Below are positions 3,725 to 15,453 of a stretch of DNA of 64,000 nucleotides, piece by piece; positions within the stretch are counted from its first letter, which is position 1; the number at the start of each line of letters is the position of its first letter. A program made the position numbers and the translations under genes. The notes under the pieces are model-generated. The model saw only the letters and a list, made by a program, of their open reading frames with translations, ran no database searches and was not told where the DNA came from. The stretch comes from a bacterium (GTDB taxonomy: Bacteria; Actinomycetota; Acidimicrobiia; Spongiisociales; JAHEDJ01), in assembly GCA_024641325.1 (NCBI GenBank), contig JAHEDJ010000007.1, forward strand, positions 3,008 through 67,007, given 5' to 3'.

Positions 3725-5761
3725 ATGACCCGTATCAGCAAGTTCAACGACCGGGAGCTGTCGTGGCTCGACTTCAACTCCCGGGTTCTATCGATCGCCG
3801 AGGATCCTGAGACTCCGCTGCTCGAGCGGATCAAGTTCCTCGCCATCTTTACGACGAACCTCGATGAGTTCTTCGAGATTCGTGTGGCCGGGATTCTCGA
3901 GCAGGTGGCCGCCGGGATCCGGCGACCGGCCCTCGGCGGCATGTATCCGACGGCGCAGTTGAAGGCCGTACGTGCCCGCGTCACGAATCTGTATCAGCGA
4001 GTCGACAAAGCACTGCGTGACGAAATCGTCCCCGGCCTTGCTGCCGCCGGCGTGTTCTTCAGGTCCTGGGATGAGCTGAGCGAGAGCGATCAGGCCTATC
4101 TGACCGTACAGTTCCACTCCCGGGTCTTTCCCGTGGTCACCCCGCTTTCGGTAGATCCCGGCCACCCGTTCCCCTACCTCTCGAACATGTCTCTCAATCT
4201 GGCCGTCACGGTGCGTGATCCGTCGACGAGCGTGGCGCGCTTCGCCAGAGTCAAGGTTCCACCGATCCTGCCGCGGTTTCTCGTCCTGCCGGGTGGTGAC
4301 CAAATCGTTTCCCTCGAAAATGTCATCGCCGCTCATCTCGATGCTCTCTTCCCGGGCATGGAGATCGTGTCGCACGTTGCGTTCCGGGTCACCCGCAATG
4401 CCGACCTGGAGATCGAGGAGGAAGAAGCCGACGATCTCCTCGAGTTCATCGAAAGCGAGCTCAGCCGGCGCCGATTCGGACGCGTCGTTCGACTCGAAGT
4501 CGAGCCGAATATCACCGAAGACGCGCTGAGCCTTCTCGTCAGGGAGCTCAACATTGGCCCTGATCAGGTCTACATGACCGAGGGCCCGCTCGATATGACC
4601 GGCTTCTGGGGCCTCTACGAACTCGACCGCCCGGATCTGAAGTGGGGTTCGTACGTCTGGGTGACTCCCCGGCAGCTGGCATCCAAACCGGGCGAACGGA
4701 TGAACATCTTTGACCGGATCAGGGAAGGCGATATCTTCGTCCAACACCCCTACGATTCTTTTGCGGCGTCAGTCGAGGAACTGGTAACGCAGGCGGCATC
4801 GGACCCGAAGGTACTGGCGATCAAGCAGACTCTGTACCGGACGACCGCCGACTCACCCTCCATGCACTCGCTCATCGCGGCCGCCGAAGCGGGCAAACAG
4901 GTGGTAGCTCTCGTCGAACTCAAAGCCCGTTTCGATGAACAGGCCAACATCGAGTGGGCGCGGCGCCTGGAGGAGTCCAGCGTGCACGTCGTCTACGGCC
5001 TGGTCGGTCTCAAGACTCACACGAAGACGACCCTGGTCGTGAGAGATGATGGTGATGAGATCCGCAGGTACTCGCATGTGGGAACAGGGAACTACCACAA
5101 CAAGACGGCCCGGATCTACGAGGACGTCGGGCTTCTCACCGCAGATCCGGACATCGGCGCAGATCTATCCGATTTGTTCAATTACCTGACCGGATATAGC
5201 AAGCAGGTCGAGTATCGCAAGCTTCTCGTGTCTCCCATGACGCTCCGGAAGCGGATGGTCAAGCTAATCCGCAGGGAAGCCAAGCGCGATGACGGGCACA
5301 TCGTCATGAAGATGAACTCGCTCGTCGATGGCGGCATGATTCGGGAGCTGTACAGGGCTTCACAGGCCGGAACCCGGGTCGACCTGATAGTGCGTGGCAT
5401 TTGCTGTCTGCGCCCCGGTGTCGAAGGGCTCTCTGAAAACATCACCGTGCGTTCGTTGGTGGGCAAATACCTGGAGCATTCCCGCATATACCGATTCGGA
5501 ACCAAAGACCGTGGCTACGAGTACCTCATCGGTTCGGCGGACCTCATGCCGCGCAATCTCGACCGGCGTGTCGAGGTCGTTGGTCCGGTCACCGATCCCT
5601 CACATCAGGATCGTCTCGACGAAGTGTTCGAGATTCTCTTTGCCGACGATGAGCTTGCATGGGAGTTGCAGTCGGATGGAATGTGGCGCAAGATCGAGAC
5701 CGTGCAAGGTCTGAATGCACACAAGCGTCTCCAGAGTCTGGCCATCGAACGTACGAGGTGA
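3725..5761 (+). CDS. ppk1: polyphosphate kinase 1
   Basis: FNDRELSWLDFNSRVL, HPYDSF, ELKARFDE, GTGNY, LEHSRIY, GSADLMPRNLDRRVE. Confidence 0.97.
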   Translation: MTRISKFNDRELSWLDFNSRVLSIAEDPETPLLERIKFLAIFTTNLDEFFEIRVAGILEQVAAGIRRPALGGMYPTAQLKAVRARVTNLYQRVDKALRDEIVPGLAAAGVFFRSWDELSESDQAYLTVQFHSRVFPVVTPLSVDPGHPFPYLSNMSLNLAVTVRDPSTSVARFARVKVPPILPRFLVLPGGDQIVSLENVIAAHLDALFPGMEIVSHVAFRVTRNADLEIEEEEADDLLEFIESELSRRRFGRVVRLEVEPNITEDALSLLVRELNIGPDQVYMTEGPLDMTGFWGLYELDRPDLKWGSYVWVTPRQLASKPGERMNIFDRIREGDIFVQHPYDSFAASVEELVTQAASDPKVLAIKQTLYRTTADSPSMHSLIAAAEAGKQVVALVELKARFDEQANIEWARRLEESSVHVVYGLVGLKTHTKTTLVVRDDGDEIRRYSHVGTGNYHNKTARIYEDVGLLTADPDIGADLSDLFNYLTGYSKQVEYRKLLVSPMTLRKRMVKLIRREAKRDDGHIVMKMNSLVDGGMIRELYRASQAGTRVDLIVRGICCLRPGVEGLSENITVRSLVGKYLEHSRIYRFGTKDRGYEYLIGSADLMPRNLDRRVEVVGPVTDPSHQDRLDEVFEILFADDELAWELQSDGMWRKIETVQGLNAHKRLQSLAIERTR

Positions 5762-5780
5762 ATATGTCGGAGCGCTGGTC

Positions 5781-6659
5781 GTGAGCATCGAACCCGAGCA
5801 GCAACCGACCATTCGCCAGGTCGTACAGACCTCAATCGCCGACACGGTTCGCCGCTATCTGGACAACGCCCCCGCCATTACACGCCACGAGGAGCCGGAG
5901 GGAGTTCATCAGGCCAGGGTGGCCACCAGAAGGCTTCGTTCCGATTTCCGCACATTTCGTCGGTTCCTCGATCAAGACTGGGCAGATCAGCTGCGGCGAG
6001 ACCTCCGGGCGCTCACCGATTTGTTGGGACCTGTGCGCGACCTGGACGTGCTGCACATGCACCTGGCCGGGCTCATTGAACAGGTGCCCGATTCTGAACG
6101 CCGGGCAGCGGAAGCGATCCTCACGGCTCTCGACGCCGAGCGCCGGGATGCCCGCAGCCGCGTTGCCGAGGGTTTCCACGAACCGTGGTATCCGGATTTG
6201 CTGGATCGTCTGATTGAAGCGGGCGAAACTCCGCGGCTCGTTGAAGCAGCGAATCTCCCTGCCGGTCCAATTCTGTTGAAATTGGCTCGTAAGCCCTGGC
6301 GCAGACTTCGCGCGGCGGTGCGTGATCTGCCTGTGGATCCGACGCCGGTCGAGCTGCACCGGATCCGGATCTTGACCAAACGGGCCAGATATGCGGCTGA
6401 AGCAGTGTCACCGGTTGGCGGAGAGGCGGCGGAGGGTTTTGCCTTTTCGCTCTCCGAACTCCAGGACATGCTCGGCGAGCATCAGGACGCGGTGGTGGCG
6501 GGACAGTGGCTGCGCAGGCGAGATTCTTCTCTGGCACTGGCGGCAGGAGAGCTGATCGGCTTCGAGGTCTCCAGGTCCAATCGGGCCGCCGCCGGTTGGC
6601 GGGTAATCTGGGATTCAATCGATAGCGGCGAGCCGGCGGATTGGCTGGAGCCGCAATGA
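5781..6659 (+). CDS. CHAD domain protein (polyphosphate-binding)
   Basis: EGVHQARVATRRLRS, LGPVRDLDV, LHRIRILTKRARY, LQDMLGEHQD; GTG start at 5781 preceded by GGAG; adjacent to ppk1. Confidence 0.9.
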   Translation: MSIEPEQQPTIRQVVQTSIADTVRRYLDNAPAITRHEEPEGVHQARVATRRLRSDFRTFRRFLDQDWADQLRRDLRALTDLLGPVRDLDVLHMHLAGLIEQVPDSERRAAEAILTALDAERRDARSRVAEGFHEPWYPDLLDRLIEAGETPRLVEAANLPAGPILLKLARKPWRRLRAAVRDLPVDPTPVELHRIRILTKRARYAAEAVSPVGGEAAEGFAFSLSELQDMLGEHQDAVVAGQWLRRRDSSLALAAGELIGFEVSRSNRAAAGWRVIWDSIDSGEPADWLEPQ

Positions 6660-6774: not shown

Positions 6775-7524
6775 ATGCCGATGCCGGTGGCGAGGACAAC
6801 GTTGCGGAGTTTCGTGGTCCTTGTATTCGCCCTGCTGCTCGCCGCGAGCCTTGCCTCGATGGCCGGCGCCCAGGATGAGACGACCGAATCGACGTCGGGA
6901 GAGGCACCGGTTCGAGAGGTCAACGAGGCCGGCCAAGCCATCTACGACTCTGTTTGCTTTGCTTGCCATCAACCGAACGGAGAAGGTACGGCCGTCTTCC
7001 CTCCGCTCTATCCGAATCCTCATGTCGATGACGCCGTTTATGTCGAGGATGTGATCAGAAACGGGCGCACCGGAGAGATAGTCGTCAATGGGGTCACCTA
7101 CAACGGCCGCATGCCGGCTCAGAATTTGACCGATGAAGAGATCACGGCAGTGATCGACTACGTCCAGTTCGATCTCGGTCGTCTACCTGTAACTCCGGGC
7201 GAAGTGGTTGGAGAGGACGCCTTTCCCTGGGGCCTCCTCACCTTGTTCGCTCTCGTGTCCGTGCTGGCGGTCGGGATCGCCTACATAATCGTCACACCCG
7301 GCGGCGAGGGCTTCACCTGGGCGAGGGCCTGGTGGTTGGCCGCTGTCGTGTTCTTGTACTTCGCAATCGCAACGGTCTGGCTGCCCGACTATGTGATCAA
7401 CGAGCCTGCGTTGGCGTCGATGCCGGATCTCGTCAGGGATCTAGCCGCCGCCGGTGCGTGGTTCGTCGCGCTGGCCGCGGGTATCTACTCGCTGCGAATC
7501 CTCCAGAAACGCGGCCGGGTCTGA
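6775..7524 (+). CDS. c552-like cytochrome c with signal peptide and C-terminal ~3-TM anchor
   Basis: Signal peptide, CFACH heme motif, FPPL, YNGRM axial Met, hydrophobic C-terminal segments. Confidence 0.88.
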   Translation: MPMPVARTTLRSFVVLVFALLLAASLASMAGAQDETTESTSGEAPVREVNEAGQAIYDSVCFACHQPNGEGTAVFPPLYPNPHVDDAVYVEDVIRNGRTGEIVVNGVTYNGRMPAQNLTDEEITAVIDYVQFDLGRLPVTPGEVVGEDAFPWGLLTLFALVSVLAVGIAYIIVTPGGEGFTWARAWWLAAVVFLYFAIATVWLPDYVINEPALASMPDLVRDLAAAGAWFVALAAGIYSLRILQKRGRV

Positions 7525-7753
7525 GCCATTCGGCGTAGCCGAGTGAAGCACCTGATACCCGGTACCTGGTACCAGGTGCGGAGGCGTCCGCCCCGGACGG
7601 CGACCGTTTCCGACGCCGTGTTGCCATCGTCGTCGATCGTCCTCTATGCTCGCTCGCAGCGCGGAGGGTGAGGATTCTACGACCTGCGAGTCGGGTTGCT
7701 CTCGGTCCCGACTCGCCGTTTGGGCAGTGCACGACCGGTGGAGAGCTATCACC

Positions 7754-7894
7754 ATGGAAGAGATCAAGTCCACTGAGGAGGAGTTCCACCCGAAGGGCAC
7801 GGCCCTCGTTCTCGCGATCTTCGTCCTCGTTCTGATTCTGCTGTGGGGGACCGTGTACCTGATTCTTCTGTCGAGAGGGATGACGACGGTATGA
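7754..7894 (+). CDS. cbaD: ba3-type oxidase small subunit IIa (CbaD-like), 46 aa
   Basis: MEEIKSTEEEFHPKGTALVLAIFVLVLILLWGTVYLILLSRG: single TM with the PKG...W..Y....RG pattern of Thermus CbaD; ATGA overlap with subunit II. Confidence 0.8.
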   Translation: MEEIKSTEEEFHPKGTALVLAIFVLVLILLWGTVYLILLSRGMTTV

Positions 7895-8403
7895 GTGAAG
7901 AAACCCCCGAAGTCTCAGCGGAGACCTCACTTCACATTGATCCGTACGAGAGAAACTGGATGCGCCTAACGGTCGTACTTCTGGTCGTGTTCGCGACGGC
8001 TGTAACGATTGCCGGATTTGCATTGGGTTTCCAGGTTCCCAGCCCCGAAGAACGGGTCGATCCGAGGACGGTTGCCATCGGTGACGGTCCATTCGCGGAT
8101 CCCGGTCTTCGTGAATACCCCGACGGTAGCTACGACCTCTACATCGTCTCTCAGATGTTCTCTTTCAGTCCGAACGAGGTGACGGTGCGCGCCGGATCTG
8201 AAGTGACCTTCTACGTGACCTCGATCGACGTCCAGCATGGTTTCAAACTTCAGAACACCAACGTGAACATGCAGATAGTCCCCGGCCAGGTATCGAAACT
8301 GACGGTGACGTTCGATGAACCCGGAACCTATGACTACATCTGCACCGAGTACTGCGGTAGTGCCCACGCGCAGATGTACGGCACGCTGACGGTCGAGAAG
8401 TGA
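7891..8403 (+). CDS. cbaB: ba3-type cytochrome c oxidase subunit II (CuA)
   Basis: One N-terminal TM with YE motif, DVQHG, CTEYCGSAHAQM CuA ligands; ATG at 7891. Confidence 0.93.
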   Translation: MSEETPEVSAETSLHIDPYERNWMRLTVVLLVVFATAVTIAGFALGFQVPSPEERVDPRTVAIGDGPFADPGLREYPDGSYDLYIVSQMFSFSPNEVTVRAGSEVTFYVTSIDVQHGFKLQNTNVNMQIVPGQVSKLTVTFDEPGTYDYICTEYCGSAHAQMYGTLTVEK

Positions 8404-8419
8404 GCGCGGAGGGACTCAG

Positions 8420-10081
8420 ATGCTGACCACACCCACCTACGAGCTCACGAAGTCGGAGAAGAGCTTCGTTTCGATCCACCTGTTGTTCGCGTTTGTCGCG
8501 CTTGCGATCGGAACGCTGTTCGGACCGCTCCAGGCATTCGAGTTCAGCGGAGTCGACTTCTATCCGCTCCTCGAGCCGGTCATTCAGTCCTATTACCAGG
8601 GCCTCACCCTGCACGGTGTGCTGAACGCGCTGATTTTCACGACGTTCTTCATCACAGGATTCCTCACGCTGACCACCATCTACGGGCTCAAGCGGCCCCT
8701 CAAGTACCCGCTGCTCAACCAGATCGGGTTCTGGACGATGGTCGTCGGACTCGTGATGGCGGCCGTCCCGATTCTGCTCAACCAGGCGAGCGTCCTCTAT
8801 ACGTTCTACCCGCCGCTCAAAGCGAACGTCTTCTTCTACTTTGGACTGACCCTGGTGGTGGTAGGTAGCTGGATCGAAGGCTACGGCTTCATCTTCACGT
8901 GGCGTGAGTGGCGCAAGGAGAATCCGGGCGTTCGCACACCGCTGATGACGTTCGGCGGTCTCATCACGATGGTGATGTGGCAACTCGCCACCCTTGGTGT
9001 GGCGGTTGAGATCTTGACCATGCTGATTCCGTGGGCACTGGGTTGGATCGACGGGGTAGATCCACAGCTGGCCCGAACCTACTTCTGGTTCACCGGCCAT
9101 CCTCTGGTCTATTTCTGGCTATTGCCTGCCTACGTGTCGTGGTACGCCATGCTCCCCAAGCAGGCCGGCGGCAAGCTCTTCAGCGACTCGCTGGCGAGGA
9201 TCGCCTTCTGGCTGTTCCTGCTTCTCTCGGTCCCGCTCGGATTCCACCATCAGTTCGTGGATCCGGGCGTCCCGGCCGGGTGGAAGTACATCCACGCGGT
9301 CCTCACCTACTCGGTCTTCTTCCCGTCGATGATTACCGCGTTCACGGTCATTGCGTCGCTCGAGCGGGCGGGTCGCGCCCGCGGCGGCAAGGGCTGGCTC
9401 GGCTGGATTCCCAAACTGCCGTGGAACGATCCGTCGGTCAGTGCCCAGTTGCTGGCCGGAATCCTGTTCTTCTTCGGCGGGATTGGCGGCATCACCAACG
9501 CCTCATACAACATCAATCTCGTCATCCACAACACCGCCTGGGTTTCGGGTCATTTCCATCTGACGGTGGCGTCGGCCGTGGCGTTGTCCTTCATGGGAAT
9601 TTCCTACTGGCTCGTCCCTTATCTGCGCGGCAAGAGGCTCTGGAGCCGCAAGTGGGCCGTTATTCAAACGTGGCTGTGGTTCGTCGGCATGCTGATCTTC
9701 TCGAACGCCATGCACGTCCTAGGGCTGCTCGGTGCTCCCCGGCGAACGCCACTCGGTGAAGCGCCTTATATCCCTGAGGAATGGAGCGGGCACCTGCTTC
9801 GTACCAGCATCGGAGGAGCGATCCTCATGGTGTCGGCATACATGTTCATCTACAACATCGCCAGGACCTGGTGGTCGAAGAAGCTGAACGCCGGCCCGGG
9901 CGAATTGGTCGAGATTCCAGCCGCCGAGTCGGTGCATCCCGCCCAGCAGACGCCTGCCAAGCTCGACTGGTGGACGCCGTGGCTCATCGGGACGGTAGCC
10001 CTGATTCTCGTTGCCTACGGACCCCAGTTGATCGAGCAGATCGGCAACATCGACCTGTCATCGCCTGGAGTGATGCCTTAG
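8420..10081 (+). CDS. cbaA: ba3-type (B-family) heme-copper oxidase subunit I
   Basis: LTLHG, GHPLVYFWLLPAY (His-Tyr crosslink), GFHHQFVDPG, GHFHLTV. Confidence 0.95.
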   Translation: MLTTPTYELTKSEKSFVSIHLLFAFVALAIGTLFGPLQAFEFSGVDFYPLLEPVIQSYYQGLTLHGVLNALIFTTFFITGFLTLTTIYGLKRPLKYPLLNQIGFWTMVVGLVMAAVPILLNQASVLYTFYPPLKANVFFYFGLTLVVVGSWIEGYGFIFTWREWRKENPGVRTPLMTFGGLITMVMWQLATLGVAVEILTMLIPWALGWIDGVDPQLARTYFWFTGHPLVYFWLLPAYVSWYAMLPKQAGGKLFSDSLARIAFWLFLLLSVPLGFHHQFVDPGVPAGWKYIHAVLTYSVFFPSMITAFTVIASLERAGRARGGKGWLGWIPKLPWNDPSVSAQLLAGILFFFGGIGGITNASYNINLVIHNTAWVSGHFHLTVASAVALSFMGISYWLVPYLRGKRLWSRKWAVIQTWLWFVGMLIFSNAMHVLGLLGAPRRTPLGEAPYIPEEWSGHLLRTSIGGAILMVSAYMFIYNIARTWWSKKLNAGPGELVEIPAAESVHPAQQTPAKLDWWTPWLIGTVALILVAYGPQLIEQIGNIDLSSPGVMP

Positions 10082-10196
10082 GGAGTCGCGAGTCTCCGGA
10101 CCTCCGGGACTACGGGAGCCAATTGCCAATTGCCTTCTGCCTTCTGCTCCCGGTTGTGAGTGAGATCTCATTTCGTCTCGTTACGATCACTCCCTC

Positions 10197-12428
10197 ATGG
10201 ATCCCGAGCGCCTCAACGAACTCCAGCCTGGCGCTGATTGGCAAACCCGCCGGGGTGGGACCGTCAAGCTGTGGCTCAATCGGTTCGAGGCCTGGTCGCT
10301 CATTGTCGAGCGTGCCGTCGGTCGGCTGGTTCGCGAACGGAACCTGAACCCGCTCCATCACACCGGGACGATCACGGTGTTTCTGCTGGTTCTGCTCCTC
10401 GTCACCGGCATCTATCTCACGCTCTTCTACCAATTCGGGTTCGACGCCACCTACGAGGCTGTTGCGGGAATCGAGGCTAATCCGCTGAGCCGGATCGTCC
10501 GGGCCGTGCATCGTTACGCTTCGGCCGCCACGTTGATAACGGCCGTCATCCATGCCTGGCGAACCTTCTTCATGGATCGGTTTCGGGGCGCTCGCTGGCT
10601 GGCCTGGGTTACCGGCGTGGCCTCTGTGACGCTCGTATGGCTGGCCGGCGTCACGGGCTACTGGATGATCTGGGATGTAACGGCCGGTCCTTTGAACCAG
10701 TCCCTGATCGATTTGATTGATTGGATCCCCGGCTCGGATACATTCATCGTCAACACGTTGAACCCGCAGTTTGCCGGATCGGGCTGGGTGTTTCTCGTGC
10801 TGGTCATCACGGCGCACGTGCTGGTGAGTGCGGTCATCGGTCTGATGCTCTGGTATCACCTCAGGCGACTGAACCGGGCCCGCTGGTTGCCTCCTGCACA
10901 CTGGATGTGGATATCCAGCGCCGTGTTGCTGGCGGCCGCCGTGGCTGTGCCGGTCGGGATGCTGCCTGCGCTAGATGTCACCGAACGGGTCGGGACGATC
11001 GACCTGGATATCTGGTTTCTCGCCTACCTTCCGGCGGCGCTGCGCTCGCCCGCTTTGTTGTGGACGGCCGTCGCGACGGTGACGGTCCTTGGAGCTGCGA
11101 TTCCCTGGTTGCTGAGGCGTCGGCTACCCGCGCCCGTCGTTGTAGACCGCCGGCGGTGCACGGGTTGCACTCTCTGTTTCGTCGACTGTCCGTACCAGGC
11201 GATCGCTATGGAAAGGCAGGGGGGTGGCGAACTGTTGGCGATCGTCGATCGACAGAAGTGCGTGTCGTGCGGCATCTGTATCGGTAGTTGTCCACCGTTG
11301 GCCATCTCATTCGACGGAAATCCTCCCGAGGGCAAATGGCCGACAGACGATGAACGCGTCCGGAGCGGAGCTGCGGTCTCCTATCTGTGTGAACGCCACT
11401 TCCAGAAGAGTTCAGTCGGCAGTGATGGAATTGTCGTGCCGGTTACGTGCGTCGGGATGATTCACCCTGATGAGATAGACGCGGTGCTGTCTGCGGGGGC
11501 AAGTCGGGTGCGCCTGATCGGATGCCCGCCGGATGACTGCGCCAACCGGGAGGGCAATGAGTGGACTCAGGCCCGGTTGACCGGGAAGCGGCGTCCGAAG
11601 GCTCCGCAGGGGCTCGATCTCGGCCGGGTCGAATTCGATTGGCGAGCTCCGGGAGATCCGCTCCCCGGCGCCTCCCCGGCCGAATTCCGGGATGTTGTTC
11701 CCGCTGCGCAATGGAAGCGGCTCATGCCGGTTGCGCTGATGTTTGGAGTGTTGCTGGCCGGCCAGCTTCTATTGACCTTTGTTCCGGTGGATGCTTTTGG
11801 TGACGATTCGGCAGTGGTCGAGGTATCGATGAAGCACCGCATCGGAGTGGCGATCGAAGGAATCCCGGATCCGGAGGGACTCTTCGTAGGTAGTGGGACT
11901 CGACTCGAACTACTCATCGATGGACGGGTGGCTCTGGATCGTTCGTACGGCGGGTCGGCCGTAACGGTCTTCGAGCAGGTAGAGATCAGCCCCGGATTGC
12001 ACGAGATCACAGTCGTGGTCGATGATGGAGGGGTCCGGCAGATGGTGGTGTTCGAGGAATCCCGCGTCTTCGGCGCGCGCGAGATCATCTCGATAGCCGT
12101 CAAAGACACGCCGGGCAGTGCCGATCCGGACCGAGGTGAAGAGCTCTTCACCGCCGCTGCCATTCGTGGAGGCGCCGGATGCAGGGTTTGCCATTCGCTC
12201 AGGGAGGGAGACGACGGTGTGGGGCCGTCTCTGGCGGGTGTCGCCACCCGGGCAGCCGGCCGCATTGCGGGCGTGTCGGCCGAGGCCTATCTCCGCCAAT
12301 CCATTCTCGACCCCGACGGGTTCGTGGTTGAGGGGTATAGGCCCGGTCAGATGCGATCCGACATTGCCGAGGAGCTCACGAATGATGAACTCGCCGACCT
12401 GATTGCCTATCTTCTGACCTTGAGGTGA
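10197..12428 (+). CDS. fusion: cytochrome b (N- and C-terminal parts) + 2x[4Fe-4S] ferredoxin + MvhD/FlpD-like Fe-S domain + TM + cytochrome c
   Basis: His pairs VHRY..IHAW and AHVL..YHLR; CTGCTLCFVDCP and CVSCGICIGSCP; YLC..VTCVGM..GCPPDDCANREGN; CRVCH..GQM. Confidence 0.85.
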   Translation: MDPERLNELQPGADWQTRRGGTVKLWLNRFEAWSLIVERAVGRLVRERNLNPLHHTGTITVFLLVLLLVTGIYLTLFYQFGFDATYEAVAGIEANPLSRIVRAVHRYASAATLITAVIHAWRTFFMDRFRGARWLAWVTGVASVTLVWLAGVTGYWMIWDVTAGPLNQSLIDLIDWIPGSDTFIVNTLNPQFAGSGWVFLVLVITAHVLVSAVIGLMLWYHLRRLNRARWLPPAHWMWISSAVLLAAAVAVPVGMLPALDVTERVGTIDLDIWFLAYLPAALRSPALLWTAVATVTVLGAAIPWLLRRRLPAPVVVDRRRCTGCTLCFVDCPYQAIAMERQGGGELLAIVDRQKCVSCGICIGSCPPLAISFDGNPPEGKWPTDDERVRSGAAVSYLCERHFQKSSVGSDGIVVPVTCVGMIHPDEIDAVLSAGASRVRLIGCPPDDCANREGNEWTQARLTGKRRPKAPQGLDLGRVEFDWRAPGDPLPGASPAEFRDVVPAAQWKRLMPVALMFGVLLAGQLLLTFVPVDAFGDDSAVVEVSMKHRIGVAIEGIPDPEGLFVGSGTRLELLIDGRVALDRSYGGSAVTVFEQVEISPGLHEITVVVDDGGVRQMVVFEESRVFGAREIISIAVKDTPGSADPDRGEELFTAAAIRGGAGCRVCHSLREGDDGVGPSLAGVATRAAGRIAGVSAEAYLRQSILDPDGFVVEGYRPGQMRSDIAEELTNDELADLIAYLLTLR

Positions 12429-12433
12429 TCTAA

Positions 12434-12802
12434 ATGAAGCGACTTGTTGTGATGCTGGTCCTTTCGACACTCGTTGCGGCCTGCGGAGGGGAGTCGGGCG
12501 ATGGACCGGAACTGCTGGGACAAGAACTCTTCCATGAGATCGTGGTCGGTGGAAAAGCCGGTTGCGGTTCCTGTCACTCGATCGAGGCGGGCAAAGACGG
12601 CGTTGGTCCGTCATTGGCCGGTGTGGGAACCGCAGCTGCGGGACGGGTGACCGGCCTTGCCGCGGCCGACTATCTCAGGCAGTCGATAACCGAACCGGAC
12701 TCGTTTGTCGTTGAGGGGTTCAACGCAGGTGTCATGCCGAGAGGCTGGGAACTCAGTGATGAGCAGATCGAGTCACTGGTGGACTACCTGCTGGGCCTGT
12801 AG
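12434..12802 (+). CDS. cytochrome c lipoprotein
   Basis: Lipobox LVAAC, CGSCH, GVM axial Met; paralogous to the C-terminal domain of the upstream fusion. Confidence 0.9.
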   Translation: MKRLVVMLVLSTLVAACGGESGDGPELLGQELFHEIVVGGKAGCGSCHSIEAGKDGVGPSLAGVGTAAAGRVTGLAAADYLRQSITEPDSFVVEGFNAGVMPRGWELSDEQIESLVDYLLGL

Positions 12803-12897
12803 CGGACCGACGATAGGCAGTTGGCGATTGGCGATTGGCCCACGGGTTCACTCACCGCTTGACCAACGAAAGGAAGCGTGTCGGGCAGAACCCAGAA

Positions 12898-12942
12898 CCG
12901 AGCGACGCCCAGATCGATTCGTTGGTGGAGTACCTGACGGGT
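12898..12942 (+). pseudogene. relic of a cytochrome c 3-prime end
   Basis: Encodes PSDAQIDSLVEYLTG versus LSDEQIESLVDYLLG at 12752-12796; no start or heme motif. Confidence 0.55.
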
Positions 12943-12981
12943 GGGGGACGGGTGAAACCCAGAACCTAGAACTGCTACCAG

Positions 12982-13410
12982 CTACCTGCCTACCGGGTAG
13001 GCCGTCTCTCGCCATTCGCCGTCGTTGCCATCCACCATCTTCGAGCCGTAGAGTTCACCTTCGACGGTGACGGTGAACGAAGCGGTGCCTGCAACTTCGA
13101 GTGCTGCCTGATCTGATGTTTGCCAGTCGATCTCGAGCGTGTTGCCGTTCAGGTGTCCGGTGCCCTCCTGGAATGCTTCGGTGACGATCCACTGGAGTTC
13201 GTAGGTGCGTGGGTTGGGCCCGGGTGTGATTTCGAGCCGCCCTGTGTATTCCTGGCCGTGCGGGTCTATGCCGTTGAGAACGTAGCCGCCCACGATGGTG
13301 CCGATCAACCCGGGTGGGGCGTCTGCTGCATGCATGAGCGGATCACTATCTCCGCAGGCGGAGGCGAAGAGGGTAAGGGTGATGAGGAGCCAGGTGAGCC
13401 GAAGCAGCAT
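12982..13410 (-). CDS. hypothetical lipoprotein (predicted beta-rich)
   Basis: From ATG 13410: MLLRLTWLLITLTLFASAC lipobox, followed by alternating beta-strand-like segments. Confidence 0.7.
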   Translation of the reverse strand: MLLRLTWLLITLTLFASACGDSDPLMHAADAPPGLIGTIVGGYVLNGIDPHGQEYTGRLEITPGPNPRTYELQWIVTEAFQEGTGHLNGNTLEIDWQTSDQAALEVAGTASFTVTVEGELYGSKMVDGNDGEWRETAYPVGR

Positions 13411-13641
13411 GGGCCCAAGAATCGCTCGTATCTCGACCGCATGCGAATTGCGAACCGCGAATCGCGATCTGCCATCCTGTGAATGCCGGGGCGAACCACG
13501 TGCCGATCGCGGCCTGCGATGCGAGAGCGGGAAGCTAATCGCCAATTGTCAGTAGCCATCAACCGGCGGCTCCACTCTGATTTCGGGCCTCGCAACCATG
13601 CCTACCATTAGCGGCCCGGACGCCTTCCGGTAGGAGATTCG

Positions 13642-14364
13642 ATGGCGATCTCAGTCGATTCGCCTGAGACAACCGAGGAACCGCGCCTCTCTCGGCGAGG
13701 ACGGCGATGGCTGATCGCCGTCGCCGTCGTGGCTGCGCTCGTGGTTGCATCCGTCTTCGCATTCGTTACTTTCCAGCCCATTCAGGTATTGCCCCGGGTT
13801 CGCCTGGCGCCCGGGTTCAGCCTCATCGATTCGGAAAGCCGGACGCTGACGAGTGAAGATCTGCGAGGCCGTTTCGTCCTTTACACGTTCAGCTACTCAT
13901 CCTGCGAGAACTGCGGCTCGATCGACGAGACGATGCTCGAGATCCAGGAAGGCCTTGCTACGGCAGACCTCCGTGGTCTCCCCGTGCGGCTGGTGACGAT
14001 TTCGATTGATCCGGATGACACCCCTGAGACGCTGGCGGCTTACGCGGATTCGACAGGGGCTGATTCGTCCGTCTGGACGTTTGCGGCCGTGGAGGATGAC
14101 CGTTTCCTCGCCGATGTCGTCGCCGGCGGCTTCAACACTTATTACGCCGCCGAGGACGACGGATCCATCAGTCTCGATCGGAGCTTCGTGCTCGTTGACA
14201 ATGCCGGAATCATTCGCAACGAGTACAAATATCAGACCCAGACTTCCGATGCAGAGCGGATTCTTCGCCACCTCGGCGTTCTCGCCGAGGAAGTTGAGAA
14301 CAGCAAGGGCGCCGCCAGCCTCGCGTATGAAGCCGCTCACCTGTTCCTCTGCTACGCCCCATGA
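13642..14364 (+). CDS. atypical SCO-family/thioredoxin-fold protein
   Basis: N-terminal TM, APGFSLID, LRGRFVLYTFSYSSCENC, VTISIDPDDT, FVLVD; CxxC replaces CxxxC. Confidence 0.8.
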   Translation: MAISVDSPETTEEPRLSRRGRRWLIAVAVVAALVVASVFAFVTFQPIQVLPRVRLAPGFSLIDSESRTLTSEDLRGRFVLYTFSYSSCENCGSIDETMLEIQEGLATADLRGLPVRLVTISIDPDDTPETLAAYADSTGADSSVWTFAAVEDDRFLADVVAGGFNTYYAAEDDGSISLDRSFVLVDNAGIIRNEYKYQTQTSDAERILRHLGVLAEEVENSKGAASLAYEAAHLFLCYAP

Positions 14365-15005
14365 CAGAGTCACCGTTCTCCGAGGAACTAGCTCCTTCCC
14401 GCTCCAGGCCTCCATGGCAATATGCCCTGGTGGCCGTGCCGCTCCTGGTAGCCGGCCTCGTCTTCTGGTGGGGGTACAACCGTGCCCAGCCGCATCAGTT
14501 CAGCGGTGCAGTTATTCAGGGGCTGACCGCAGCTCCTGATTTCTCGCTCTCTTCGGACTCGGGCCCCGTTTCTTTGAGTGATCACCGCGGCAAGCTGGTG
14601 GTTCTGTACTTCGGCTACACGTTTTGTCCGGATGTCTGTCCTACCACTTTGCAGGATGTCGCCGACGCGATCGAGATCCTCGACGACGATGATGCGAAAG
14701 ATGTCCAGTTGATCTTTGTGACGGTCGATCCGGTCCGGGATACCGCAGAACGCCTTGGTGAGTACGTGCGTCACTTCGACGAGAGCTTCCTCGGGGTAAC
14801 CGGCACCGAAGAGGAGATCGGGTCGGTCGCCACCCTCTACGGGATCTACTACCGCGCCGGGGAAGGGTCGGAGGCGACCGGTTATCTGATGGAACATACG
14901 GCCACGTTGCTCGTGATTGATCGTGAAGGAAACCTGAAGGAAGTCATTCCGTTCGGGGTCGATTCGGAGGGCATCGCTGCCGATTTCGAATACATGCTGC
15001 GATAG
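14361..15005 (+). CDS. SCO1/SenC copper chaperone
   Basis: YFGYTFCPDVCP, VTVDPVRDT, MEHTATLLVID. Confidence 0.93.
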   Translation: MTESPFSEELAPSRSRPPWQYALVAVPLLVAGLVFWWGYNRAQPHQFSGAVIQGLTAAPDFSLSSDSGPVSLSDHRGKLVVLYFGYTFCPDVCPTTLQDVADAIEILDDDDAKDVQLIFVTVDPVRDTAERLGEYVRHFDESFLGVTGTEEEIGSVATLYGIYYRAGEGSEATGYLMEHTATLLVIDREGNLKEVIPFGVDSEGIAADFEYMLR

Positions 15006-15018
15006 AACAGGAGAGATC

Positions 15019-15453
15019 ATGAGGCGAATATGGGCGGCATTAGCGGCGGCCGTACTGCTCGCAGCGGCCGGATGTGCCGGTGGCGCTGATATCGAGGTTA
15101 CGGATGCCTGGGGTAGGCCGTCGCCTTCCGCGGCATCAAACGGCGCTTTGTACATGATGATCGCCAACAACACCGACTCGGTCGATCACCTGGTTGCGGT
15201 GTCTTCCTCTGCCTGCGGCGTTGCCGAACTCCATGAATCGATCATGAGCGACGGAGTCATGAGTATGAGTCCGGTTGGATCCGCCGGTATTGAGATCCCC
15301 GCGGGAGGCGAAGCGACCCTAGAGGTTGGTGGGTTACACGTTATGTGTATCGACAAGCAAGCAGACTTCATCGCAGGTGATACCTACGAAGTTACCCTCG
15401 AGTTCGATAAGGCGGGATCGCTCACCGTCGATGTGGAGATCAGAGAGGGTTAG
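15019..15453 (+). CDS. PCuAC copper chaperone lipoprotein
   Basis: Lipobox AAGC, DAWGRP, ELHES..M..M, GGLHVM. Confidence 0.9.
   Translation: MRRIWAALAAAVLLAAAGCAGGADIEVTDAWGRPSPSAASNGALYMMIANNTDSVDHLVAVSSSACGVAELHESIMSDGVMSMSPVGSAGIEIPAGGEATLEVGGLHVMCIDKQADFIAGDTYEVTLEFDKAGSLTVDVEIREG

Follow-up and report, generated by a model that had tools for sequence, protein, structure and literature searches.

The locus occupies positions 6775-15453 of a 64-kb stretch of DNA (the window, which was searched throughout) from an uncultured sediment Acidimicrobiia bacterium and encodes, in this order and all on the plus strand, a c552-like cytochrome c, cbaD, cbaB, cbaA, a large fusion protein, a lipoprotein cytochrome c, a SCO-like protein, a SCO protein and PCuAC. 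Each of these genes, listed in an initial annotation of the region, was confirmed at its position and strand; the description of the cluster as co-oriented holds for them but not for a conserved lipoprotein gene on the minus strand (12982-13410), which had been overlooked. The cluster contains exactly three CxxCH motifs. A motif scan of the window found no Rieske signature, and tblastn found no homologues of cytochrome b, ctaA or ctaB elsewhere in it, bearing out the earlier statement that Rieske, ctaA/ctaB and qcr genes are missing from the cluster; NuoF-like, GltD-like and cydAB homologues were also not found elsewhere in the window by tblastn.

The first gene (6775-7524, 249 aa) codes for a membrane-anchored, c552-like monohaem cytochrome c (Pfam Cytochrom_C, E 5e-12) with a signal peptide, one CxxCH motif (CFACH) and C-terminal transmembrane (TM) helices as anchor. 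Its matches in the PDB are the cytochrome c domains of Cu-nitrite reductases and, weakly, Thermus c552 (E 6e-7), and the homologue found in Acidimicrobiia relatives is the leading gene of a divergent operon for a Rieske protein and cytochrome b. It is separated from cbaD by 230 nt with an inverted repeat (7548-7579) and a promoter-like site (7621-7650), and is probably, judging from the sequence, a transcription unit of its own. cbaD (7754-7894, 46 aa, one TM helix), which codes for subunit IIa of a ba3 oxidase, scores 21.2 bits with CoxIIa, just above the Pfam cut-off of 20.7 bits, and is kept in 39 of 40 fully flanked related loci. It overlaps, through an ATGA, with cbaB (7891-8403, 170 aa, Pfam COX2 and Cupredoxin), the gene for subunit II with its CuA centre, whose motif reads CTEYCGSAHAQM. 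cbaA (8420-10081, 553 aa, COX1 E 8e-96) codes for subunit I of a B-family haem-copper O2 reductase and matches subunit I of Thermus thermophilus ba3 (511 bits, E 4e-152), with GHPLVYFWLLP aligned.

The fusion gene (10197-12428, plus strand) codes for a protein of 743 aa, with Pfam matches to Cytochrome_B, Fer4, FlpD and Cytochrom_C, in which a cytochrome b is followed by 2x[4Fe-4S], an MvhD-type [2Fe-2S], TM helix 7, an Ig-like domain and a cytochrome c. Residues 1-308 (10197-11120) form a six-helix dihaem cytochrome b (helices A-F) with H105/H207 as ligands of haem bL, H119/H221 as ligands of haem bH and D271-I-W-F as ef-loop motif. The top PDB sequence matches of this part are to cytochrome b6 (E 4e-20), about 310 residues of the fusion align by Foldseek to full-length cytochrome b (actinobacterial QcrB among them), and across 120 homologues the haem b His and their Arg partners vary little or not at all. 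The cytoplasmic 2x[4Fe-4S] ferredoxin domain (residues 313-371; 11133-11309; Pfam Fer4 families) has the ligands C321/324/327/331 and C355/358/361/365, of which seven are invariant and C361 is conserved in at least 90% of the same 120 homologues, all eight being invariant in the wider family. The MvhD/FlpD-like [2Fe-2S] domain (residues 397-488; 11385-11660; C398, C418, C443 and C448; Pfam FlpD, E 1e-9) matches MvhD chains in the PDB (E 1e-8 and 5e-7). Residues 503-637 (11703-12107) comprise the seventh TM helix and a periplasmic Ig-like beta-sandwich without Cys, in which H547 and H602 (PGxH) are conserved, the PGxH His being invariant throughout the wider family; AF2 models covering this region have pLDDT values of 90 and 88, and Foldseek on the Ig-like domain gave generic Ig/FnIII-like matches only (E at least 5e-3). 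The protein ends in a periplasmic class I cytochrome c (residues 644-743; 12126-12428; C662xxC665H666 and M719; Pfam Cytochrom_C, E 3e-8) that matches the cytochrome c domain of caa3 oxidase subunit II in the PDB (E 1e-10). In the 120 homologues, little or no variation is seen at the 12 Fe-S Cys, the CxxCH and the axial Met, and exactly one CxxCH is present in each of the 81 full-length relatives. The predicted topology, drawn from hydropathy, the positive-inside rule and an AF2 model (pLDDT 90.4, pTM 0.86), has seven membrane crossings, with the Fe-S domains on the cytoplasmic side and haem c on the outer side.

Starting 5 nt past the fusion stop, with a GAGGTGA ribosome-binding site ahead, a second gene (12434-12802, 122 aa) codes for a lipoprotein monohaem cytochrome c, a paralogue of the fusion's own cytochrome c domain (53% identity to residues 647-742) that is found downstream of the fusion in 34 of 75 loci. 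Between it and the SCO genes lies the minus-strand gene mentioned above, which codes for a conserved small lipoprotein of 142 aa; it is LIC10280-like (NCBIfam LIC10280_fam, E 2.5e-11, under the cut-off), shares 66% identity with its homologue at related locus L083 and clusters with genes located within 600 nt of the fusion 3' end in 44 loci. Of the "two SCO proteins" described initially, the second (14361-15005, Pfam SCO1-SenC 136 bits) is a canonical SCO1/SenC copper chaperone with a CPDVCP motif, whereas the first (13642-14364, partial match to SCO1-SenC, E 6e-13) is non-canonical, with a CxxC (C88, C91) and a C-terminal H233..C237 and without the CxxxC/His copper site; its C88, C91, H210, H233 and C237 are conserved in at least 90% of 58 homologues. 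The last gene (15019-15453, Pfam PCuAC 110 bits) codes for a PCuAC copper chaperone lipoprotein. The SCO pair is kept in 39/40 fully flanked loci and PCuAC in 11/40.

Metatranscriptomes from an estuary and from the same sample contain contigs 95-100% identical to the cluster over all its genes, including a same-sample contig, 100% identical, that covers 7732-7931 (cbaD) and another RNA contig that runs from the fusion into the small cytochrome c; these contigs are short, come from mixed communities and do not span the cbaA-fusion junction. The fusion family is found in 510 species genomes, and its ba3-linked subfamily in Acidimicrobiia and Anaerolineae. Co-conservation with B-family oxidases, set beforehand as the test on which the proposed link could fail, was found: of 67 related loci whose flanks were long enough, 64 have a cbaA that shares the strand of the fusion gene and stops under 400 nt upstream of it, all 40 fully flanked loci contain both cbaA and cbaB, and the patristic distances of the fusion and CbaA are correlated (mirror-tree, r = 0.86). 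In other phyla, relatives without the cytochrome c are encoded in haem-copper oxidase operons with the order COX2-COX1-(CtaB)-SCO-fusion, COX1 being present in 23 of 27 well-flanked loci; some of these relatives have a NuoF-like NADH flavoprotein gene next to them. The islands holding fusion relatives also carry cytochrome bd, an Rrf2 regulator and an SQR-like flavoprotein.

The fusion is a genuine partner of the oxidase, transcribed in the environment, conserved widely and biochemically uncharacterised; its sequence and gene neighbourhood suggest that it is probably a private electron supplier of ba3-type oxidases. Our preferred reading, to which we give a little less than an even chance, is that these genes specify a ba3 (B-family) cytochrome c oxidase, a dedicated protein for electron input to it and the factors that insert its copper, and that a cytoplasmic donor feeds the input protein via the MvhD-like domain. 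An NAD(P)H- or ferredoxin-linked cytoplasmic partner would dock on this domain, and electrons would pass from the [2Fe-2S] through the 2x[4Fe-4S] to haem bH and across the membrane to haem bL; from there, probably via menaquinone in a degenerate Qo-like pocket, they would reach the fused haem c and the small lipoprotein cytochrome c, and then CuA, haem b and haem a3-CuB, where O2 would be reduced. Menaquinol may be a further electron source, entering through this pocket from the p side. The CuA centre would be matured by the CxxC SCO-like protein, SCO and PCuAC. This module would not need a Rieske protein and would act alongside, not in place of, any cellular Rieske/cytochrome b complex, as a low-oxygen respiratory or O2-scavenging branch. 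The path from the fusion through haem c to CuA had been proposed in the initial annotation and fits the topology (cytoplasmic Fe-S, two b haems and an outward haem c beside CuA); the microaerobic branch also proposed there is consistent with the cytochrome bd and the Rrf2 regulator in the relatives' islands, which fit a low-oxygen role. The input of ferredoxin-level electrons and the passage through three haem c domains in series, likewise part of that proposal, are conjectural.

A cytoplasmic donor is supported by the flavoproteins encoded beside some relatives: a NuoF-like NADH/FMN flavoprotein directly 3' of the fusion in four loci (L085, L090, L091 and L093), and a GltD-like NAD(P)H flavoprotein adjoining the cluster in 10 of the 40 ba3-type loci, with a separate Rieske/cytochrome b module on its other side. 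Further support comes from the ferredoxin and MvhD region, whose residues 314-484 are aligned by the NCBIfam HdrA2 model and correspond collinearly to the HdrA2 C-terminus, since in the Mvh-Hdr structures the same clusters bring electrons inward from the donor enzyme. The resemblance of the fused cytochrome c to the caa3 subunit II domain, which feeds CuA, argues for a role as donor to CuA. Furthermore, the Qo Trp, 96% conserved in cytochrome b (Kao & Hunte 2014, PMC4122944), is gone in the ba3-linked subfamily, where the motif is D-(L/I)-(F/W), a loss that also favours this reading. Against this reading, no cytoplasmic partner is encoded in the cluster or in the window, and most loci lack the NuoF-like and GltD-like neighbours. 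These modules are, in addition, reversible.

The acidic D271 of the ef loop, which is invariant, and the conservation of the cd loop speak for a retained quinol/quinone site, so that menaquinol could be the main or sole donor. The fusion could then be a Rieske-less menaquinol oxidase with a low-potential outlet, performing a Q-cycle-like, oxidase-driven bifurcation without a Qi site, in which menaquinol would be oxidised at the Qo-like site, the first electron going to the fused haem c and ba3 and the second through bL, bH, 2x[4Fe-4S] and [2Fe-2S] to a cytoplasmic acceptor (NAD(P)+ via a flavoprotein partner, ferredoxin or a disulfide). We consider this rather unlikely, although D271 stands where PEWY has its glutamate, a clear P-x-D-W-F/Y motif, which Kao & Hunte class as the Qo motif PDWF (PMC4122944), persists in the wider family, and the cd-loop GYW(L/M)IWD is conserved as in b6. 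The NuoF-like and GltD-like neighbours also resemble those proposed to reduce NAD(P)+ in the Rieske/cytochrome b complexes of anammox bacteria (PMC12954380), and the relatives' islands are quinone-centred (cytochrome bd, SQR-like flavoprotein). However, a Rieske-type proton-coupled high-potential acceptor is not present, the periplasmic beta-sandwich has no cluster ligands and the ba3-linked subfamily lacks the Qo Trp; inward transfer of the second electron, against the membrane potential, to a low-potential acceptor would be energetically costly, and reverse electron flow is not obviously needed by heterotrophic Acidimicrobiia and Anaerolineae.

It is improbable that the fusion is a disguised Rieske-dependent b6c-type complex, borrowing its Rieske protein from elsewhere and carrying the Fe-S insert as an accessory. 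Its helices A-F superpose on cytochrome b, and the succession of a b6-like core, two further helices, a last helix and a cytochrome c is the QcrB + QcrC order of Bacillus Qcr, in which QcrC is a subunit IV-cytochrome c fusion. Rieske genes are located within 10 kb in 10/40 relatives, but they sit directly beside the cluster in complete Rieske/cytochrome b/multihaem c modules with their own cytochrome b and cytochrome c. The initial view of the system as self-contained and Rieske-free stands only for the cluster and the window and not for these 10 relatives, whose modules indicate that the fusion is not simply a complex III replacement. Moreover, the Qo motif of the fusion is degenerate, and no Rieske gene was found in 30/40 fully flanked loci, among the clusters that recur across the wider family's 83 loci or in the window; Kao & Hunte likewise report none in the PDWF-FeS clusters (PMC4122944). 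Most improbable is an assembly or repair reductase (reducing Cu(II) or thiols for CuA/CuB maturation), CcoG-like in function, for although the fusion is always encoded with SCO proteins, directly follows CtaB and SCO amid assembly genes in the wider family, shares with CcoG the layout of TM helices, 2x[4Fe-4S] and Ig-like domain known for that protein and has conserved His in its Ig-like domain, a Pfam search gave no FixG_C or CcoG match, all six cofactor sites are strongly conserved, and a dihaem cytochrome b with a Qo-like motif and an oxidase-donor-like cytochrome c goes far beyond the needs of such an enzyme.

Among known systems, the fusion resembles cytochrome b6f and the Bacillus-type b6c in its b6-like four-helix dihaem core (the best PDB sequence match) and, as in b6c, in the further helices and C-terminal class I cytochrome c on the p side; in contrast to them, it has no Rieske subunit, lies on one chain and holds, in the cytoplasmic loop that precedes the last helix, an insert of about 200 residues with the Fe-S domains, and the haem ci-binding Cys35 of b6 is replaced by His55 (Tyr in the wider family). 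The oxidase is like T. thermophilus ba3 in its subunits I (the 511-bit match), II (CuA) and IIa and in the c552-like cytochrome c encoded nearby, although Thermus c552 is reduced by a Rieske bc complex and we know of no cytochrome b/Fe-S fusion in the Thermus cba locus. The 2x[4Fe-4S] followed by an MvhD-type [2Fe-2S], with the same ligands, is found in MvhD and the C-terminal ferredoxin domain of HdrA/HdrA2, but in Mvh-Hdr, which is soluble, the wire leads to a bifurcating FAD, whereas that of the fusion, which has no HdrA flavin domain, joins a membrane cytochrome b. As in the anammox Rieske/cytochrome b complexes, an NAD(P)H-type Fe-S flavoprotein may be associated (the GltD-like neighbour of 10/40 relatives), although those complexes retain the Rieske subunit and the GltD-like gene is absent from the window. 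CcoG (FixG/RdxB), the cupric reductase of cbb3 assembly, is also a membrane protein with cytoplasmic 2x[4Fe-4S] and an Ig-like domain encoded with oxidase genes, but it lacks cytochrome b, MvhD and cytochrome c domains and gave no sequence match to the fusion. The closest architecture is the "PDWF-FeS clade" (cytochrome b + 4Fe-4S + MvhD domain, with an acidic Qo-motif variant), named by Kao & Hunte (2014, Genome Biol Evol, PMC4122944), so the module cannot be called undescribed in this respect, as it initially was, although in the part of that paper considered here the clade is given neither a function nor a link to haem-copper oxidases. Beyond that clade's parts, the fusion has a seventh helix, an Ig-like domain and a cytochrome c of its own; it lacks the motif Trp (D-I-W-F), and its genomic link is to ba3 oxidases.

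The fusion gene (10197-12428, + strand), which codes for a 743-aa protein, is a fixed part of a ba3 oxidase operon, because it is conserved together with the oxidase genes across the related loci. Relatives are present in 510 genomes (in a scan with one genome per species), and a word-indexed search returned more than 700 homologues of full length that share its four Pfam domains; these carry the labels Acidimicrobiia, Anaerolineales or Chloroflexi and the product name "hydrogenase iron-sulfur subunit". The ba3-linked set comprises 83 loci (relatives are numbered as L loci); 67 of these extend 2 kb or more upstream, and 40 extend 8 kb or more in both directions. In 64 of these 67 loci, cbaA has the same orientation as the fusion gene and ends less than 400 nt 5' of it; the 40 fully flanked loci contain cbaA and cbaB (40/40), cbaD (39/40), SCO (39/40), the small cytochrome c (16/40), PCuAC (11/40) and ctaA (4/40). 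Patristic distances in the fusion and CbaA trees are correlated (r = 0.86), and each of the 81 full-length relatives (81/81) carries exactly one CxxCH motif. The co-conservation with B-family oxidases anticipated by the initial annotation is, therefore, borne out, and the obligate genomic pairing of fusion and oxidase is established, as are the cofactor sites and the topology of the protein.

The gene order in the window, obtained from the ORF listing and Pfam/NCBIfam scans, begins with a membrane-anchored monohaem cytochrome c of 249 aa (6775-7524), followed by cbaD (7754-7894), cbaB (7891-8403), cbaA (8420-10081), the fusion gene, a small lipoprotein cytochrome c of 122 aa (12434-12802), a SCO-like gene (13642-14364), SCO (14361-15005) and PCuAC (15019-15453), all of them on the + strand. 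The cluster contains exactly three CxxCH motifs. The - strand carries the gene for a conserved LIC10280-like lipoprotein of 142 aa (12982-13410), missed by the initial annotation, which in 44 loci out of 83 lies no more than 600 nt from the 3' end of the fusion gene, in either orientation. Its product is Gly-rich, has no conserved metal ligands and belongs to no Pfam family, and it may act in the module as an additional subunit or an accessory protein. Also overlooked were the 230 nt between the first cytochrome c and cbaD, which contain a GC-rich inverted repeat (GCACCTG...CAGGTGC, 7548-7579) directly 3' of the cytochrome c stop and a promoter-like site (7621-7650) between this repeat and cbaD. 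The spacer between cbaA and the fusion gene (10081-10196) contains short tandem repeats (gccaatt gccaatt and gccttct gccttct) and no clear terminator; there is no obvious Shine-Dalgarno sequence at the fusion start, in contrast to the GAGGTGA that precedes the small cytochrome c.

The cluster is transcribed in nature. Every gene of the cluster is covered by contigs of 95-99% identity from three estuary metatranscriptomes, and one such contig runs from the fusion into the small cytochrome c. A metatranscriptome of the same sample as this sequence provides a 100%-identical contig over cbaD/cbaB. No clean contig crosses the cbaA-fusion junction in the metatranscriptome data examined, so these contigs do not prove a single transcript running from cbaA into the fusion. 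Phosphate genes are found on either side of the respiratory cluster: a ppk and CHAD gene unrelated to it at the 5' side (3725-6659, + strand), and pstS with the pst permease genes at the 3' side (16102 to about 21800, + strand; order listed as pstSCAB-phoU). The same flanks are retained in two close relatives, L001 and L083, and in the latter the pst genes run on into pstB, phoU and a two-component pair. The remainder of the 64-kb window is composed of housekeeping genes; a motif and homology search found no Rieske, cytochrome b, NuoF-like, GltD-like or cydAB genes elsewhere in it, and no homologue of the haem A(s) supply genes ctaA/ctaB.

The oxidase genes are what the initial annotation had taken them to be, and its gene inventory is confirmed. 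CbaA aligns over residues 13-545 with subunit I of the Thermus thermophilus ba3 oxidase (511 bits, E 4e-152) and contains the His-Tyr motif GHPLVYFWLLP (GHPIVYFWLLP in T. thermophilus), which identifies it as a B-family (ba3-type) haem-copper O2 reductase by subunit I homology and GHPxVY. CbaB is a CuA-type subunit II, with the CuA site CTEYCGSAHAQM and a Pfam COX2 match, and CbaD is a small subunit IIa (CoxIIa, 21.2 bits for a cut-off of 20.7). The product of 14361-15005 is a canonical SCO protein with CPDVCP as its CxxxC motif and the distal His (SCO1/SenC, 136 bits), whereas its paralogue (13642-14364) has C88-E-N-C91 in place of CxxxC and falls outside this definition. The conserved residues of this first paralogue, whose deviating motif the initial annotation overlooked, are C88, C91, H210, H233 and C237, the last three near the C-terminus; it is paired with the canonical SCO in 39 of 40 related loci, and its role may be to reduce thiols or to handle copper in another way.

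The AlphaFold model of the fusion, built with 120 homologues in the alignment, is confident, with a pLDDT of 90.4 and a pTM of 0.86. Residues 1-308 constitute a cytochrome b, for which cytochrome b6 gives the top sequence matches among solved structures (E 4e-20). The six helices A to F are all present, since Foldseek matches about 310 residues with full-length cytochrome b, actinobacterial QcrB among them. Haem bL is coordinated by H105 and H207 and haem bH by H119 and H221; all four His are invariant or at least 90% conserved, and so are the Arg residues that pair with the propionates, R102 and R122, as in a dihaem cytochrome b. A haem ci site like that of b6f was rejected, since the equivalent of Cys35 is His55 in this protein and Tyr in the wider family, and the cytochrome b part, therefore, contains only two b haems. 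Helix F is followed by a 2x[4Fe-4S] ferredoxin domain (seven of its eight Cys are invariant and C361 is at least 90% conserved) and by an MvhD/FlpD-type [2Fe-2S] domain with C398, C418, C443 and C448 invariant (FlpD, E 1e-9; MvhD chains in the PDB, E 1e-8), both being collinear with the C-terminus of HdrA2. A seventh TM helix and a beta-sandwich follow. The possibility that the latter is a degenerate Rieske or cupredoxin domain was discarded, because it contains no Cys and Foldseek returns only generic Ig/FnIII-like matches (E >= 5e-3). The C-terminal end is a class I cytochrome c similar to the cytochrome c domain of subunit II of caa3 oxidases. By hydropathy and the positive-inside rule, the Fe-S domains are cytoplasmic, and the Ig-like domain and the cytochrome c face outwards. 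We take this layout to be that of a b6c-type QcrB plus QcrC whose last cytoplasmic loop contains an inserted Fe-S module.

The ba3-linked proteins belong to a wider family of 354 clusters (exhaustive HMMER search, E <= 1e-30), many of whose members are proteins of 650-720 aa with the cytochrome b, ferredoxin, MvhD, TM helix and beta-sandwich but without the cytochrome c. These relatives are labelled Deltaproteobacteria, Nitrospirota or Nitrospinota, and HMMER links them to the window fusion with E values from 1e-56 to 1e-120. Three context look-ups and a metagenome scan yielded 83 loci of this type, usually arranged as COX2-COX1-(CtaB)-SCO-fusion-(hemerythrin). Of the 27 that are well flanked, 23 contain COX1, 23 contain SCO and 10 contain the cd1 nitrite reductase NirS; the haem-copper linkage is thus family-wide. 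Clusters with hemerythrin, NirS and a second short COX1 include L100, L107, L119, L120, L127, L130, L141, L165 and others. A representative neighbouring COX1 has GHSSQQ where GHPxVY is expected and lacks the HPxVY tyrosine, suggesting that these neighbours may be NO-reductase-type enzymes derived from the B-family. In four loci (L085, L090, L091 and L093), a NuoF-like NADH/FMN protein (Complex1_51K, SLBB and NADH_4Fe-4S) is encoded directly 3' of the cytochrome c-less fusion, within the haem-copper oxidase operon, and in two of them (L085, 4583-10049; L090, 6452 to about 11400) it lies between two fusion paralogues. This protein is a candidate cytoplasmic partner of the fusion, and NAD(P)H flavoproteins recur as neighbours across the family.

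The working scheme that we consider most likely, though tentative when taken as a whole path, is that the fusion feeds electrons from the cytoplasm to the ba3 oxidase. An NAD(P)H- or ferredoxin-linked cytoplasmic partner would reduce the MvhD-type cluster, and electrons would cross the membrane through the two [4Fe-4S] clusters to haem bH and haem bL. From there, probably with a menaquinone in the degenerate Qo-like pocket as a relay, they would reach the fused haem c and the small cytochrome c, and finally CuA. The ef loop of the fusion, D271-I-W-F-L-A-Y-L-P, is the counterpart of E-W-Y-F-L-F-A-Y in bc1. In the Qo motif P(E/D)W(Y/F), which reads L-D271-I-W-F in the fusion, the Asp is invariant and the usually conserved Trp is I or L in the ba3-linked subfamily, while the cytochrome c-less relatives have D-W-F/Y. 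Oxidation of menaquinol at this Qo-like site, with the Fe-S wire working as a low-potential outlet, is an alternative that we regard as rather unlikely.

The initial annotation described the module as self-contained and Rieske-free. This holds for the cluster and the window, in which neither a CxH...CxCH motif nor a Rieske homologue was found, and 30 of the 40 fully flanked loci also lack a Rieske subunit. It does not hold for the other 10 of these 40 relatives, where a second complete module adjoins the cluster, composed of a GltD-like NAD(P)H Fe-S flavoprotein of 620 aa that heads it, a split cytochrome b, a Rieske protein and a multihaem cytochrome c. It is downstream and co-oriented in Chloroflexota and upstream and divergent in Acidimicrobiia, where the homologue of the first cytochrome c of the window is its first gene. 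Examples of the module are found in L081 (13660-18801), L006, L054, L032 and L022 and, in divergent orientation, in L011, L014, L017 and L071. This GltD-headed module recalls the Rieske/cytochrome b complexes of anammox bacteria, which are proposed to reduce NAD(P)+ (PMC12954380). In these relatives the fusion, therefore, co-exists with a canonical Rieske/cytochrome b complex. An ordinary complex completed by a Rieske protein borrowed from elsewhere appears improbable. Other Chloroflexota loci add further respiratory genes: those of the Villigracilaceae type have an Rrf2-family regulator before the oxidase-fusion operon and an SQR-like flavoprotein and cydAB after it (L004, 5047-5490; L040, 13084-14523; L047, 15252-16637; L030, 5272-6165), a neighbourhood that looks like a low-oxygen respiratory island.

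A CcoG-like assembly role is less probable still, as the fusion has no FixG_C or CcoG Pfam match at E <= 0.01 and Foldseek gives only generic Ig-like matches for its periplasmic domain. The hydrogenase subunit of the public annotation was rejected, since no hydrogenase genes were found in any of about 160 loci, and the name "hydrogenase iron-sulfur subunit" misleads metabolic reconstructions.

By domain content (Cytochrome_B, Fer4 and FlpD in one chain, and no Rieske in the cluster), the fusion belongs to the "PDWF-FeS clade" of Kao & Hunte 2014 (PMC4122944), an assignment by architecture; this clade was described as cytochrome b fused to 4Fe-4S and MvhD domains without a Rieske gene, and whole cytochrome b units were suggested there to be parts of other complexes. 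The claim that the module is undescribed has, thus, to be narrowed, because its architecture has been on record since 2014. Full-text searches gave, besides this, only a domain-table entry and no functional description. No paper was found that tests the function of the family, links it to haem-copper oxidases or describes the cytochrome c-bearing subfamily. The architecture is known though uncharacterized, and what is new here is its cytochrome c-bearing, ba3-linked variant.

Among Anaerolineae and Acidimicrobiia, at least 510 species-level genomes carry the family, and its cytochrome c-less relatives lie beside other haem-copper enzymes in several more phyla. Haem-copper oxidases usually receive electrons from quinol directly, from Rieske/cytochrome b complexes or from alternative complex III; given its broad distribution beside these enzymes, we, therefore, regard the fusion as a widespread candidate for an additional route, which might lead from cytoplasmic NAD(P)H or ferredoxin straight to the reduction of O2 (or NO). 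Its carriers include many bacteria that abound in sediment and wastewater and are described as fermenters, yet contain oxidase genes; the fusion-oxidase module may account for their use or scavenging of oxygen traces. The fusion would also offer a natural test case of quinol chemistry at a Qo-type site in the absence of a Rieske protein, and it resembles the "membrane-anchored dehydrogenase" that has been proposed as the ancestor of bc complexes. A bolder proposal, which we consider unlikely as a whole, would make the fusion a third kind of "complex III", Rieske-independent, energy-converting and hard-wired to haem-copper oxidases. Its NAD(P)H- or ferredoxin-fed Fe-S wire would inject electrons on the n side of the b6-type cytochrome b and its Qo-like menaquinone site would relay them to the fused haem c or CuA, either coupling the reductant directly to O2 with Q-cycle-like proton translocation or, in reverse, bifurcating menaquinol electrons between the oxidase and a low-potential cytoplasmic acceptor.
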